In this document: one piece after another, positions 5,500-55,428 of the stretch | Numbering within the stretch: position 1 is the first letter of the stretch | Layout of the letters: each line of letters begins with the position of its first letter | The notes under the pieces: model-generated | Seen by the model: only the letters and a program-made list of their open reading frames with translations | Told to the model about the DNA's origin: nothing | The model's database searches: none | Program-made: the position numbers and the translations under genes | Origin: an uncultured bacterium | GTDB taxonomy: Bacteria; Krumholzibacteriota; Krumholzibacteriia; LZORAL124-64-63 | Reading direction: 5' to 3' | DNA length: 64,000 nucleotides | Assembly: GCA_963727525.1 (NCBI GenBank) | Contig: CAVSGO010000007.1 | Location: 2,112,001 to 2,176,000 of the forward strand

Positions 5500-6900
<1,401 letters not shown>

Positions 6901-7091
6901 CGGAACATCCTCACCGTTCGCAGCACCACGAGATTCGCCGGACCGCGCGGCCGGCGTCGAGGGAGCAAGATAACACGCACGCCCGCGAGCTACAACGCAC
7001 GCCCCGAAAACGTCGAAAATTCGCCTCAAGAGATCCCTAGGATCGCCGATCGTGTCCCCAGGCAACCGGTCACCCTGACGGGAGGAAAACC

Positions 7092-7748
7092 ATGCGCACC
7101 CTGATGATCGTTCTGGTCGCTGCAGTTCTGCTGGCGACTCCGGCCCTGGCCGAGCGGACTTATGACTACTACTGGCAGGTCGACGGCGCCACATTCCTGG
7201 GCTCCTTCGACAACTGCACGGGCGAACTGTCGTCCGACATGAACTTTCCCATGCACACCGGCTCCGCCCTGAAGCTCACGAAGACCATCAGCGTGACGGA
7301 GGGCTACTCGACGGGTTTCCTGGCGGCAGTCTGGAACCTCAACGAGGGCGACCAGGTCACCTACAGCTACTGGCGCTACGACGCCATCGTAGGCTATCCG
7401 CGCGTGCGCCTTTGGGCTCACTATAACGACGCCCTCGGCGCGCCCGACAACCGTAGCCATGACATGCTGGTCAACGATGGCCTGGCATACGGCAACAACT
7501 CCTTCGGGTACGAGTCGGGCTGGGAACAGGTCAGCTATACCTGGACCATGCCGGCCGGCCACGTGGGCCTGGTCATCGACTGTGTCATCTATGGCGACTA
7601 CGGCTCCGAGGTCTACGTCGACGACATGTCGATCACCGTTCCGGACAACGCCTGCGTGCAGGACCCCGCCGTCTACCACGACGAGATGGGTTCCCCCACG
7701 GCCGTCGAGGCACAGACCTGGGGCACCGTGAAGGCTCTGTTCCAGTAG
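7092..7748 (+). CDS. Secreted protein with C-terminal TWGxVKALF tail
   Basis: GGAGG RBS; signal peptide [20 protein letters not shown]; ends [17 protein letters not shown]. Confidence 0.85.
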
Positions 7749-52528: not shown

Positions 52529-52622
52529 GCGGGCCCCGCAATCAGGTCGCGGCCACGCAACTTCGCGCGATCGGTGATCTCGTACTATCGTGGCGCCCCG
52601 GAGACCCTACCCGGGAGCGCAT

Positions 52623-53573
52623 GTGGAACGGTTGATCACCATACTCGGCAGGCACCGCCGCCTGGTGGCCGTCGCAGCGGGCGCGCTGCTGCTCGTACCT
52701 CTGTTCGTGCCGATCCCCGCGACCGCGCGCCACAGCCCGCTCATGGGCGAGTTCGGCGACCGCTTGCACGTGCTCATCTTCGCGGGCCTGGCGGCGCTGC
52801 TGGCGGTCTGGGGTCCCACGAAGGGACACATCGTCCGCGCGGCGCTGGTGGCGGCGGCAATCGGAGCAGCCAGTGAGGTTGCCCAGGGTTACGTGGGACG
52901 GTCGCCCGCGCTGGGCGACGTGCTGCTCGACTGCATCGGCATCGGATTCCTGGTGGCCGGCGTGGCGTGGTGGCGCCGGCGCAGCCAGGCGGCGGTGGTG
53001 GCGGCCATCGTCCTGGTCGCCCTGCTCGGCTACACGATGCGCAACGTCCCGAGCATCCTGAGGGCGGCGTATGCCATGCGCCGCAGCGTTCCGCTCATGG
53101 CCGATTTCGACGCGCCGGTGCAGCTCGCCGTGTGGCACGCGGCGGGCGAGGCGACGCTGACCTGGGCCGACGTGGGCGGCGCGCATGGCGGCGTGCTGCG
53201 GGTATCGACTCCGGCGACGTCGAACTGGTCGGGCGCCATGATCACGCGGATGCCGGCCGACTGGTCGCACTACACCGCGATGGCGCTGGATGTGCGTCTG
53301 GTGGGGGACACGCCCGACAGTTTGCGAATGTCGCTCCGGCTCGACGACCACGAGACCCGGCGCGACAAGGACTGGGCGTTGCGTACCGTCGTCGCCACCC
53401 ACGACTGGCGCACGGTGACGCTGCCGCTGAGCGGTCTGGCTACCTACCGCGATGGACGCGCCGTCCTGACACGCGATGTCTTCGCGCTCGGGATCATCCG
53501 TGGCGTGCCGCGGGTGGGCGCGACGTACGAGGTGGACAACCTCCGCTTGCTGGGCGACGCGGCGGTGCGTTGA
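52623..53573 (+). CDS. VanZ-like membrane protein with C-terminal carbohydrate-binding-like domain
   Basis: DRLHVLIFAGL, ASEVAQGYVGRSPALGDVLLDCIG; jelly-roll-like C-terminus (DWSHYTAMALDV..YEVDNLRL). Confidence 0.72.
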   Translation: MERLITILGRHRRLVAVAAGALLLVPLFVPIPATARHSPLMGEFGDRLHVLIFAGLAALLAVWGPTKGHIVRAALVAAAIGAASEVAQGYVGRSPALGDVLLDCIGIGFLVAGVAWWRRRSQAAVVAAIVLVALLGYTMRNVPSILRAAYAMRRSVPLMADFDAPVQLAVWHAAGEATLTWADVGGAHGGVLRVSTPATSNWSGAMITRMPADWSHYTAMALDVRLVGDTPDSLRMSLRLDDHETRRDKDWALRTVVATHDWRTVTLPLSGLATYRDGRAVLTRDVFALGIIRGVPRVGATYEVDNLRLLGDAAVR

Positions 53574-53599
53574 CAGGGACGGATCCCATCGTCTATCCT
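53570..53599 (+). promoter_or_regulatory. Sigma70-type promoter for the PG-binding/SET gene pair
   Basis: TTGACA-N18-TATCCT. Confidence 0.55.
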
Positions 53600-53645
53600 C
53601 CGGGCATCCCGCGCGCACTGCTGCCTCAGTTTCGGGAGTCTGGCC

Positions 53646-54164
53646 ATGCCCAAACCGATTGTCCATTCCGTGGGGCTGTTCGGCAAGAATGCCCCCGCGC
53701 TCGACGTGATGACGATCCAGTACCTGCTCAACTGCATTCCGATCGCCCACGGCGGGCCGACGGTCGAGCTGGTCGTCGATGGGATCTGCGGACCGTACAC
53801 CATTGCGGCCATCCGCCGCTTCCAGCGCCATACGTTCGGCTGGGTCGACGGCCGCGTCGATCCGGGCGGCAAGACCCTCGGCGCGTTGCAGGGCTTCGAT
53901 CCATACCCCGCCGAGGCGTTGCCGCTGGGGCTTGTCGCCGGTAAATCGTCGGCGGTCACCAAGTCGTCGGCGGTCACCAAGTCGGCCGGGTCGGGAAGTG
54001 CCGGCAAGCAGGCGTCGAGCGGAGGTCCGTTCGCCGGGTATCCGAGCGGTACCGCAGCCGGGGGCGGACAGCCGGTGACCAAGAGCCTCGGTGGAGCCGG
54101 CGACGGCCCCCCGGCGGTCAAGGGATTCGTTGGAGGCAAACCCGCCGGTGGAAAGGGTTTCTAG
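53646..54164 (+). CDS. Peptidoglycan-binding-fold protein with Lys/Gly/Ser low-complexity tail
   Basis: DVMTIQYLLN..LVVDGICGPYTIAAIRRFQ..DGRVDPGGKT; GGGAG RBS. Confidence 0.8.
   Translation: MPKPIVHSVGLFGKNAPALDVMTIQYLLNCIPIAHGGPTVELVVDGICGPYTIAAIRRFQRHTFGWVDGRVDPGGKTLGALQGFDPYPAEALPLGLVAGKSSAVTKSSAVTKSAGSGSAGKQASSGGPFAGYPSGTAAGGGQPVTKSLGGAGDGPPAVKGFVGGKPAGGKGF
53946..53981 (+). repeat. 18-bp perfect tandem duplication encoding SSAVTK twice
   Basis: TCGTCGGCGGTCACCAAG x2. Confidence 0.9.
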
Positions 54165-54167
54165 GCG

Positions 54168-54662
54168 ATGGTCGAGCCGGCCACCGCATTCGTGCGGGAA
54201 GTGGTGCGCCCAGGTGGGCCCGATGCCATCCCCTGCATCGACGACCGGAACTGCCGCTTCGCCCTGGACGCGCGGCCGTCGCCTATCCACCGCTGGGGCG
54301 TCTTCGCACGCGGCCCCATTCCGGCGCGACGCCGCGTCATCGAGTACACCGGGGAACGCATCGGCCTCGCGGAAGCCCGACGTCGCAGCCTGCGGATGCA
54401 TCTCTACCTGTTCTGGATCGCGCCCGATCGCGCGATCGACGGCGCGATCGGCGGCAGCGGCGCCGAGTTCATCAACCATGGGTGCGAGCCCAACCTCGTG
54501 GCTCGGCTGTCGCGGGGCCGGATCCATCTGGTGAGTCTGCGACGGATCGCGCCGGGCGAGGAACTCCTCTACGACTACAAGGTGACAGGCGCCGCCCCGC
54601 TCATGCCCTGCCATTGCGGCGCGCCCGGGTGCCGCGGCCAGCTCAATCGACGGGATCCGTGA
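54168..54662 (+). CDS. SET-domain protein-lysine methyltransferase with post-SET Cys motif
   Basis: SPIHRWGVFA, VIEYTGE, FINHGCEPN, GEELLYDY, CHCGAPGCRG. Confidence 0.92.
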   Translation: MVEPATAFVREVVRPGGPDAIPCIDDRNCRFALDARPSPIHRWGVFARGPIPARRRVIEYTGERIGLAEARRRSLRMHLYLFWIAPDRAIDGAIGGSGAEFINHGCEPNLVARLSRGRIHLVSLRRIAPGEELLYDYKVTGAAPLMPCHCGAPGCRGQLNRRDP

Positions 54663-54679
54663 CCGGTCGCGGCGGCGCA

Positions 54680-54708
54680 TTGACAGACGCCGACCGGCAA
54701 CCTATCCT
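54680..54708 (+). promoter_or_regulatory. Sigma70-type promoter
   Basis: TTGACA-N17-TATCCT, followed by GAAGGAG RBS. Confidence 0.65.
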
Positions 54709-54756
54709 TCCGGCGTTCCTTTAATCGCGGCCCGCGAGCCCCGGAAGGAGACCCCG

Positions 54757-55428
54757 ATGCAAGCCTGCCACGTGCCCGTCCCCCGCAGCGTCCTCTTTCA
54801 ACCGCCTGGCGTTCCGCCCACCGCCCAACAGCGCGCTCGCGTGCAGGATCGCGTGGTGACCGAATTGCAGGCCATGGCCGCGACGCACGAATTCGATCTC
54901 CAGCGCCGGGGCGATACCCAGCTCTGGCGCGTGGAAAGGGACGGGCTCTCGTTGCCGTGGCTCGGCGACCTGCTCGAGGCAGGTCTCAAGCGCGCGGCGG
55001 CGTGCCTCGATGCAGATCTCATCGGCGGCGCCAACGTCACGCGGCTGGACCGTACCGTGTCGCTCGGCCACCCGAGGCTGCCGTACCGCAAGGCGCTGCG
55101 CGTCGCCAACGGCCGGGGCTGGGAGCTGGCGCTCGGCGAGGAGATTCCGCGCGAGGCGCAGGCCACCCTCATCCGCTTCTGCGGCCTGCTGCCCATGCAG
55201 GTGCTTTACCTGGCAGGTCAGCCGCGTCCGGGATCGATAGCCGGCGGCGCCCAGGGGCTGTCCTACATGCTGCCCCTGGCCGGCGAGGCGCTGCGGGCGG
55301 AGATCCGGCCCGACGGGGACCGCAGCCTGGCGGTGTGCTGCCTGGATCTCGACCGTCTGCTGCAGTTCTTCCTGGGATTGGGCTCGGCCGGCGGCGGCGG
55401 ATGTGCCGACGCCCTCGAACACGCCTAG
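54757..55428 (+). CDS. Hypothetical protein; degenerate class IIb aaRS (AsnRS/AsnA-like) catalytic-domain paralog
   Basis: Co-linear resemblance to AsnS in this window (motif-1-like RVQDRVVTELQAMAATHEF; RLPYRKAL; LPLAGEAL; motif-3-like LDLDRLLQFFLGL). Confidence 0.6.
   Translation: MQACHVPVPRSVLFQPPGVPPTAQQRARVQDRVVTELQAMAATHEFDLQRRGDTQLWRVERDGLSLPWLGDLLEAGLKRAAACLDADLIGGANVTRLDRTVSLGHPRLPYRKALRVANGRGWELALGEEIPREAQATLIRFCGLLPMQVLYLAGQPRPGSIAGGAQGLSYMLPLAGEALRAEIRPDGDRSLAVCCLDLDRLLQFFLGLGSAGGGGCADALEHA

Follow-up and report, generated by a model that had tools for sequence, protein, structure and literature searches.

A conserved bacterial gene pair of a SET-domain protein and a partner with a lysine-rich tail, a candidate substrate for multi-site methylation

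We know of no native substrate for bacterial SET enzymes outside pathogens. Host histones are the only targets given in those parts of a 2014 review of bacterial SET enzymes that deal with targets (PMC3980110). The window, the whole stretch of 64,000 nucleotides analysed, raises the question of whether such a substrate may be encoded beside its enzyme: a SET gene is directly preceded by the gene of a partner protein with a Lys-rich tail, and the original prediction took the two for a dedicated enzyme-substrate pair. The cassette offers a candidate native substrate next to a bacterial SET enzyme, together with a predicted docking surface that is open to mutation. No paper on a SET-PG_binding_1 pair was found in a literature search that left subscription journals and supplements outside its range.

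The two genes and their products

Both genes lie on the forward strand. ORF A (172 aa, 53646..54164 including the stop codon) ends with TAG at 54164, and ORF B (164 aa, 54168..54662) begins with ATG at 54168. Only 3 nt separate the genes, which makes translational coupling probable. GGGAG is located 7 nt ahead of the ORF A ATG. A sigma-70-like promoter candidate (TTGACA-18 nt-TATCCT, 53570..53599, forward strand) lies upstream of the cassette and matches the consensus at 10 of 12 positions, in agreement with the promoter originally proposed; by consensus match alone, two promoter-like sites are present within 53300-55000, vs. 0.1 expected from shuffles. GC content at the cassette shows no anomaly, and composition thus gives no sign of recent transfer.

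Judged by its sequence, ORF B is a SET-domain protein lysine methyltransferase with all catalytic and post-SET motifs intact, as had been predicted. Pfam SET (PF00856) is matched at residues 43-138 with 66 bits (cut-off 22.4). The SAM-binding and catalytic motifs of SET domains are xWG, NHxCxPN and ELxxDY with the catalytic Tyr; the catalytic core of ORF B (residues 43-138, 54294..54581, forward strand) carries RWG, NHxCxPN and EELLxDY, and its SET motifs align to yeast Set1. Residues W43, G44, N103, H104, C106, P108, N109, E131, E132, L133, D136 and Y137 are invariant in 34 sequences of the SET subfamily, as are C148, C150, C155, R156 and G157 of the post-SET Cys cluster (CxCx4C followed by RG, residues 148-157, 54609..54638, forward strand). 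The closest solved relatives are SET1/MLL proteins (6ven_N with E 3.5e-31, then MLL1-4). ORF B is the sole SET domain found by profile search in the source genome (67.1 bits); in the control, Pfam SET was detected in Methanosarcina acetivorans. The N-terminal extension of ORF B (residues 1-22, 54168..54233, forward strand) is subclade-specific. Its family consensus is LTAFVREVVLPGGPDAVP, with T6, F8, R10, P15, P18 and P22 invariant. Partner-less SETs align to ORF B from about residue 20 onward and leave the extension unmatched; the partner is confined to one SET subclade, the one with this N-terminal extension of its own.

The head of ORF A (residues 1-92, 53646..53921, forward strand) is a predicted PG_binding_1-type three-helix domain. 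The match to Pfam PG_binding_1 covers residues 20-73 and is marginal (25 bits, cut-off 23); head relatives score 18-34 bits. The AF2 model shows residues 1-90 as three helices with pLDDT >90. Foldseek against the PDB gave no match with E <= 0.001; the top matches, with E 0.2 or worse, are all PG_binding_1 holders, namely 1lbu and the SleB N-domain 6tci (TMt 0.63 for the latter; prob 0.97-0.98), CtpB, SleC and endolysins. By eye, no hydrophobic stretch is seen in the N-terminus, MPKPIVHSVGLFGKN, and the fold begins at residue 1. The candidate head fold and the lack of an obvious signal peptide are as originally described. No export genes were found near the cassette. SET-linked heads share the signature K3, Y26, C30, E41 and D85-P86. 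ORF A has 61 homologues in a set of 5.8 billion proteins and 393 related stretches in species genomes. In head relatives without SET, the place of the Lys tail is taken by other modules (Peptidase_C70, Muramidase, weak Aspzincin-like matches); the carriers of Peptidase_C70 or Muramidase are more distant head relatives. NCBIfam holds no family for ORF A or ORF B, a match to variant_MftA being at chance level (E 0.029), and the Protein Atlas gives nothing beyond 'hypothetical protein' and PG_binding_1 clusters. ORF A was also considered as a polymorphic-toxin-like effector and rejected, its C-terminal part being a disordered tail, not an enzyme domain, and its flanks mixed housekeeping genes.

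Conservation of the pair and predicted docking

The head-SET gene pair is a conserved two-gene cassette that recurs in several phyla. The analysis covered the best 80 of 393 genome loci and the best 80 of 532 metagenome loci. An ORF B-type SET lies directly downstream, on the same strand, at 38 of the 80 best head relatives in species genomes, mostly with gaps of -17 to +16 nt. Where 500 nt or more of downstream sequence is available, this holds for 27/28 close heads (at least 120 bits) vs. 9/43 more distant ones; non-conservation of the pair, together with a lack of tail methylation by SET, had been named as what would refute the original prediction. The reverse survey took in 48 SET loci, each with at least 700 nt upstream. 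The partner precedes SET at 4/4 loci with a SET score of at least 230 bits, at 1/27 with 200-230 bits and at 0/17 below 200 bits. Head, linker and SET are joined in one ORF in two natural fusions, L070 (328 aa) and L105 (294 aa), whose linkers have few lysines (2 in L105). In the AF2 model of L105 both domains are confident and the linker is disordered; pTM is 0.55, so the model does not place the domains confidently against each other, and the underlying alignment was block-wise, with just 2 rows that extend over both parts. Distances among heads and among SETs are correlated (Mantel r 0.725, 43 pairs, 0/2000 permutations as high).

The hosts of the cassette are soil, sediment and sludge bacteria of the Gemmatimonadota, Acidobacteriota, Planctomycetota and Pseudomonadota. 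One pair, locus L034, belongs to a cultured bacterium, Thermomonas mangrovi 2C3345. The partner was not found in 60 genomes from the family or class of the source organism; SET matches are present in 17 of these, with identity <= 53% and over parts of the sequence. Close kin give no synteny, and conservation is therefore judged from wide searches. At L058 and L071 a Lys-bearing partner stands beside the same FG-GAP gene, with no SET there. L032 is a close head without SET, and its MAG carries a linked paralogue, L043. Distant head relatives alone occur on plasmids (6 records, <60% identity), and no relative was found in the viral_contigs set with the patterns used. No conserved third gene was found by ORF clustering in the 80 fetched loci, or with Pfam among 135 ORFs on either side of the 38 linked loci. 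A VipA/VipB sheath-like gene adjoins 2 of the 38 linked loci (L046, L052). A flavin amine oxidase that follows SET in Lysobacterales loci was examined as a possible 'eraser' and rejected as CrtI/phytoene-dehydrogenase-like (4dgk, E 8e-16); its 14 PDB matches include neither LSD1 nor any other lysine demethylase.

The head is predicted to dock onto the SET N-terminal extension. The complex prediction reached an ipSAE of 0.84 (median of 3 runs), the best of 3 controls 0.00. That mark is reached by 58/80 solved complexes and 2/110 mismatched pairs, a calibration that is rough here because the run used custom alignments and SAM. At least 26% of contacts are common to the runs, and partner pLDDT is 63 or higher. 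Predicted to contact SET are head residues 26, 29-32, 34-35, 37, 41, 43-44, 86-87, 89-90 and 92-94; the head is predicted to contact SET residues 3-9, 12-14 and 17-18. In this modelled interface the extension faces head residues 26, 30, 41 and 86, which were independently found to be specific to SET-linked heads. The tail and the active site lie outside the confident part of the interface. Two-way adjacency, the two fusions, co-divergence and a predicted interface on clade-specific residues of both proteins support the original view that the pair is a dedicated one.

Lysine in the tails

The tail of ORF A (residues 93-172, 53922..54161, forward strand) is a disordered stretch of Gly, Ser, Ala and Lys that ends in GGKGF; residues 98-172 mostly have pLDDT <52 in the AF2 model. 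It contains 8 Lys and 0 Arg. Direct reading gives VTKS three times and AGK, GGK and KGF twice each, the recurring contexts that were noted at the outset. The perfect 18-bp tandem duplication reported with them is present at 53946..53984 (forward strand; 2.2 copies, 100%); it encodes SSAVTK twice and is the source of two of the three VTKS, which shows recent growth of the tail by repeats. Background values for likely coding ORFs of the window are K 1.5%, R 9.15% and K/(K+R) = 0.14, so that Lys for 8/8 basic residues of the tail has p about 1.5e-7.

A survey of SET neighbourhoods for similar tails, suggested earlier, found them to recur. SET-linked tails are Lys-rich and almost Arg-free despite wide sequence divergence, in host genomes where Arg greatly exceeds Lys. 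The 34 linked tails contain 401 Lys in a total of 4011 aa, and 21 have no Arg; 43/53 signature-bearing cluster representatives have K >= 6.5% and R <= 2.5%. Lys is the best-conserved tail residue (0.80 vs. 0.66) in 15 disjoint tail pairs, and its replacement is by Arg in 2 of 82 cases in the same pairs. Lys is found among the last 5 residues of 32/37 linked partners. Tails in the family measure about 50 to 260 aa and contain many repeats and 5 to 28 lysines. Comparison at this level shows the hypervariable SET-linked tails to be under a Lys-specific constraint. Exceptions that keep SET are two tails from Bryobacterales, L066 with 2 Lys and L098 with none; of their truncated relatives, L084 has 4 and L099 has 0.

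The likeness to histone tails, put forward in the original prediction, is superficial. Arg is plentiful in histone tails, whose motifs include Arg-Lys contexts. The family tails have almost no Arg, VTKS-type motifs are not conserved among them, and just Lys in a Gly/Pro/Ser/Gln context is shared; Pfam detects no histone family. Histone or histone-tail mimicry was accordingly rejected.

Possible roles of the tail and related systems

The preferred reading, held with moderate confidence, is that the head docks the enzyme and SET then methylates many tail lysines, the cassette being an enzyme with its own substrate. The tail lysines would be the methyl acceptors, as Lys-specific selection on hypervariable tails suggests. 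ORF A, having no obvious signal peptide, would be made in the cytoplasm. Its PG_binding_1-type head would bind the SET N-terminal extension, as predicted, and docking would keep the enzyme close to the flexible C-terminal tail; the many lysines there would be methylated one after another with SAM. In layout this resembles a variable core behind a conserved leader. The tail would change fast via repeat gain and loss, and would have to retain lysine, not merely positive charge.

It is rather unlikely that the partner is instead a targeting or regulatory subunit, the head of which brings SET to a third-party target, such as an envelope protein or an amine of lysine or diaminopimelate in a cell-wall precursor, the tail serving as a spacer or bristle with some other need for lysine. 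The head family is modular, its Peptidase_C70, Muramidase and Aspzincin-like modules being of the kind that a targeting domain would carry, and the head could accordingly serve for targeting instead of presenting a substrate. The fusions, with few lysines between head and SET in one chain, the Lys-poor tails of L066 and L098, and the confinement of predicted binding to the head would also suit such a subunit. Arg avoidance and top Lys conservation in SET-linked tails are left unexplained by it, however; it gives no reason for the occurrence of Lys-rich tails on SET-linked signature heads, and no conserved third gene stands nearby to serve as target. A pseudo-substrate tail that restrains SET until a signal, or genes that co-travel without a direct biochemical link, are scarcely probable. 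One good site would suffice for an inhibitor, where the tails offer 5 to 28 lysines in repeats that keep changing, and an inhibitor fused to its own enzyme would be unusual, although tight coupling and predicted binding would equally fit an inhibitor-enzyme pair. Patchy spread over four phyla suggests mobility of the pair, neither the partner nor a close SET having turned up in the 60 relatives; the clade-specific co-adapted residues on both proteins argue against an association without a link.

The pair resembles RiPP pairs in its conserved N-terminal recognition part, hypervariable C-terminal part, adjacent gene for a modifying enzyme and predicted binding of that enzyme to the leader-like part. 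The head would then be a long leader, SET would modify the core, and the methylated tail peptide would be cut off and exported. This is very unlikely. No leader peptidase or exporter is conserved with the pair in the 80 fetched loci or among the 135 ORFs flanking the 38 linked loci, nor is any protease, transporter or other tailoring gene conserved beside it in those 38 loci. The 'leader' is a full, folded PG_binding_1 domain of 90 residues, and the 'core' a long repeat tail of about 50 to 260 aa.

If the tail lysines are methylated as preferred here, the cassette would be a bacterial model of docking-domain-driven multi-site modification of a disordered tail, of fast tail sequence change with the modifiable residue kept, and of the origin of the SET1/MLL-like lysine methyltransferase branch. 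A role of methylated ORF A in the cell envelope is possible because of the fold of the head. Going further, a 'tail code' of free-living bacteria, in which a SET docked on a cell-wall-type head marks a fast-evolving multi-lysine tail with methyl groups and secreted chromo-like domains read the marks at the envelope or matrix, is quite unlikely; if true, a bacterial writer, marked tail and reader would have been together before eukaryotic chromatin used lysine methylation. Secreted chromo-like domains with aromatic cages are predicted, in passages of Kaur, Iyer and Aravind, to recognize groups that resemble methyl-lysine in peptides of murein or matrix (PMC5906684).

SET1/MLL (KMT2) enzymes give the best solved-structure match to ORF B and share with it the SET motifs and the post-SET Cys cluster. 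MLL core complexes require a bound partner protein. Lysines of a disordered tail are methylated by SET1/MLL, as is proposed for ORF A. ORF B differs in being 164 aa long without other domains, in a PG_binding_1-type partner unrelated to WDR5, RbBP5 and Ash2L, in a proposed substrate from the same operon, and in a free-living bacterial host without histones. The archaeal SET of Methanosarcina mazei reportedly methylates the chromatin protein MC1-alpha. It is likewise a small prokaryotic SET with a protein of its own cell, rather than a host histone, as target; to our knowledge, it modifies one site of a folded DNA-binding protein and has no conserved gene pairing, whereas the cassette combines a docking head with a disordered tail of many lysines, in a fixed layout of two genes.

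Mycobacterial HBHA is a bacterial protein without signal peptide, and its methyltransferase is, as far as we know, not a neighbouring SET. Compared by description, not by sequence, HBHA and ORF A both have a low-complexity, Lys-rich C-terminal domain; HBHA differs in its N-terminal part and in its Ala/Pro/Lys tail. A Lys-rich C-terminal domain with multiple methyl-lysines is described for HBHA, and for MDP1/Hlp, in the relevant part of a published account (PMC8467707). Pathogen SET effectors (Chlamydia NUE, Legionella RomA/LegAS4) methylate lysines of disordered tails, according to passages of a review and a preprint (PMC3980110; 2026 RomA preprint). They differ in being injected into host cells, where they act on host histones; the cassette has no obvious secretion signal and no adjoining secretion genes, and brings its own partner.

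Gene pair and its conservation

The lysine methyltransferase gene of the window and the gene preceding it form a genuine, conserved cassette of writer and partner that has so far gone undescribed. The partner, ORF A (172 aa; 53646-54164, plus strand), consists of a head (residues 1-92) and a Lys-rich tail (residues 93-172). Its match to Pfam PG_binding_1 is marginal (25 bits, cut-off 23). Residues 1-90 are a confident three-helix domain in the AF2 model and residues 98-172 are disordered; the top Foldseek matches of the model are all PG_binding_1 holders, with weak E-values. ORF B, hereafter SET (164 aa; 54168-54662, plus strand), begins after a gap of 3 nt and matches Pfam SET clearly (66 bits, cut-off 22.4). 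A sigma-70-like site matching the consensus at 10 of 12 positions, TTGACA-18-TATCCT (53570-53599, plus strand), lies upstream of ORF A. The tail contains 8 Lys and no Arg, with VTKS three times and AGK, GGK and KGF twice each; repeat detection gave a perfect 18-bp tandem within its gene portion (53946-53984, plus strand). Promoter-like site, gene pair, gap, motifs and repeat all lie where the original prediction had placed them. The all-Lys tail is far off the local norm, since likely coding ORFs of the window are Arg-rich (Lys 1.5%, Arg 9.15%) and SET itself contains 1 Lys against 24 Arg (p about 1.5e-7 for the tail's basic residues against the window's coding ORFs).

A near-copy of the promoter-like site, TTGACA-17-TATCCT, is found just past the SET stop (54680-54708). 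It is followed by an ORF of 223 aa (54757-55428, plus strand), for which neither Pfam nor NCBIfam gave a match. The gene preceding the cassette (52590-53573, plus strand) encodes 327 aa; the N-terminal part matches the VanZ family (NCBIfam, 26.5 bits, cut-off 20), and the C-terminal part weakly matches a glycan-binding domain and CIA30.

The source genome has one SET gene. Searches of 60 genomes from its own family or class gave no partner; SET matches, all distant, occur in 17 of them. Homologues of SET number 2830, the best with 60-74% identity and from several phyla; its closest solved structures by sequence are SET1/MLL catalytic modules. Homologues of ORF A number 61, with strongly conserved heads and variable, Gly/Lys/Pro-rich tails. 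A head scan with one genome per species gave 393 stretches; the best 80 were fetched, and heads and SETs were called with profiles built in this analysis. SET lies directly downstream on the same strand in 38 of these best 80. In the 71 loci whose sequence continues for 500 nt or more past the head gene, SET accompanies 27 of 28 close heads (120 bits or more) versus 9 of 43 more distant ones. The sole close-head exception (L032) comes from a MAG with two copies, of which the other one (L043) is followed by SET. The conservation expected by the original prediction is thus borne out, across several phyla: linked loci belong to Acidobacteriota, Gemmatimonadota, Planctomycetota, Gamma- and Betaproteobacteria, with one cultured isolate, Thermomonas mangrovi. 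Gene spacing is mostly -17 to +16 nt, with frequent 4-nt overlaps. No third conserved gene stands beside the pair in linked loci; flanks are mixed housekeeping genes.

Head domain and predicted docking

Linked heads, those with SET directly downstream, are distinguished by K3, Y26, C30, E41 and P86 (39 linked versus 32 unlinked heads). The partner-linked SETs have a conserved N-terminal extension, consensus LTAFVREVVLPGGPDAVP. In the complex predicted from SET and partner alignments with SAM included, this clade-specific extension is packed against clade-specific head residues that had been found earlier by comparison alone. The confident interface comprises SET residues 3-9, 12-14, 17-18, 72 and 74-77 and head residues 26, 29-32, 34-35, 37, 41, 43-44, 86-87, 89-90 and 92-94; the tail is outside it. 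Median ipSAE of three runs is 0.84, a mark that 58 of 80 solved complexes attain, as do 2 of 110 mismatched pairs; the highest-scoring of three controls gave 0.00. The calibration is only rough because the prediction used own alignments and included a ligand. At least 26% of contacts are common to the runs, and partner pLDDT is no lower than 63. The prediction supports binding of head and SET. No complex of SET with a PG_binding_1 domain is known to have been solved.

Head, linker and SET form a single ORF at two loci, L070 (Pirellulaceae, 328 aa) and L105 (294 aa), both retaining head signature and SET extension. AF2 of a natural fusion reached pTM 0.55 and thus shows no confident packing of the two domains, which does not fit readily with docking. 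Pairwise distances of heads and SETs are correlated (Mantel r 0.725, 43 pairs; none of 2000 permutations as high), shared descent contributing. Docking of the head on SET is judged probable.

Lys 3 (53652-53654), outside the predicted interface, is kept in 95% of linked heads. Only 12% of unlinked heads share it, most having Arg at this position; Lys 3 might be an additional methylation site.

Tail lysines as putative methylation sites

Sequences of SET-linked tails are almost wholly unlike: DPFGKQPS repeats, GDPYGK repeats, PPGYKD, GGYGGQAAKGG, AGHKxGYKE, long Ala/Lys helices. Lysine recurs. Of 37 linked partners, 3 had no anchor motif and were set aside; the other 34 tails contain 401 Lys in 4011 residues and 61 Arg (summed per tail), 36 of these within two odd tails, and 21 tails lack Arg. 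Around the lysines, Pro is favoured at -3, Gly at -2 and Ser or Gln at +1. A Lys falls among the final five positions in 32 of the 37 partners (41% expected). Searched with a profile, 1.84 billion cluster representatives yielded 7871 head relatives (E at most 0.001); 57 of the best 150 bear the signature QYLLNC, 53 of them with a tail of at least 30 aa, which is Lys-rich and Arg-poor in 43. Two of the ten exceptions (P0126, P0197) have Arg/Pro/Ser-rich tails resembling frameshifted Gly/Lys tails, that of P0197 reverting to GGGKWGG at its end. In 15 disjoint alignable tail pairs Lys is the best-conserved residue (0.80 versus 0.66 for the rest; because every column entered the count twice, once per side, the printed p-value is too small). 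Where Lys is replaced, Arg takes its place in only 2 of 82 cases. The constraint therefore lies on lysine itself, not on charge. It is what an adjacent lysine-directed enzyme would impose.

Several loci do not fit a tail substrate. Linker lysines are few in both fusions, which counts against it. L066 and L098 keep SET with 2 and 0 tail Lys and many Arg; L084 and L099, truncated relatives of these two, have 4 and 0 tail Lys. In L058 and L071 (Pyrinomonadaceae-type) a short Lys-bearing partner is followed by an FG-GAP gene with no SET between; SET was lost or moved there, since the same FG-GAP gene follows SET in L054 and L060. On balance, methylation of tail lysines by SET is favoured, with less assurance than docking.

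Such a pair would be a functional near-analogue of an archaeal SET and its methylation substrate MC1-alpha. The tail would likewise be a near-analogue of mycobacterial HBHA, whose Lys-rich C-terminal domain carries multiple methylations (PMC8467707). No published description of a SET with a lysine-tailed partner was found; in the parts consulted, a 2014 review of bacterial SET proteins gives only host histones as targets and mentions no operons or neighbours. The cassette is new relative to the literature as a variant of a known enzyme system, and is directly testable. On a bold and improbable reading, a methylated tail would be read by secreted bacterial chromo-like domains, for which Kaur et al. 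predicted binding to methyl-lysine-like groups of murein or matrix (PMC5906684).

Other contexts of SET and of the head

The original prediction suggested a survey of SET neighbourhoods for similar tails. A metagenome scan with SET gave 80 loci, of which the 48 offering 700 nt or more of upstream sequence were counted. The partner lies upstream in 4 of 4 at 230 bits or more, in 1 of 27 at 200-230 bits and in 0 of 17 below 200. Because presence drops with SET score, the partner is confined to one subclade. SETs about 50% identical align only from about residue 20 on, and their contexts differ. Such partnerless SETs repeatedly lie directly downstream of a malate dehydrogenase-like gene (read by eye from printed C-terminal residues); elsewhere the upstream gene resembles a short-chain dehydrogenase. 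Dehydrogenase contexts (L116, L117, L120, L124, L126, L139, L143, L144, L152, L158, L161, L171, L174, L178; also L118, L123, L134, L135, L137) seem to be a second conserved setting of SET.

In two Rhodocyclaceae-type loci the gene directly downstream of SET codes for a single protein that matches both VipA and VipB of the contractile sheath (L046, 7325-8821; L052, 7414-8898). Three Lysobacterales/Thermomonas loci have a flavin amine-oxidase-type gene after SET (L021, 3861-5570; L033, 6963-8603; L034, 7129-8793); LSD1-like identity was rejected, the product being phytoene-dehydrogenase-like.

SET-less head relatives carry C-terminal Peptidase_C70 (L063, AvrRpt2-type papain fold), muramidase (L076, N-acetylmuramidase), weak Aspzincin-like matches (L077, L091; Aspzincin_M35) or nothing. 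A modular head joined to other enzymes also suits a targeting role. By eye, the motif of L063 is present in L079, L086, L087 and L094. None of these proteins shows an evident signal peptide. Another set of loci, L074, L078, L083, L088, L096 and L097 (about 6001-7300), has stand-alone heads some 100 aa long with PPGxxFLV-like ends. The protein of about 300 aa encoded after stand-alone heads, with no Pfam family in six scanned, is conserved and clustered in 7 loci.
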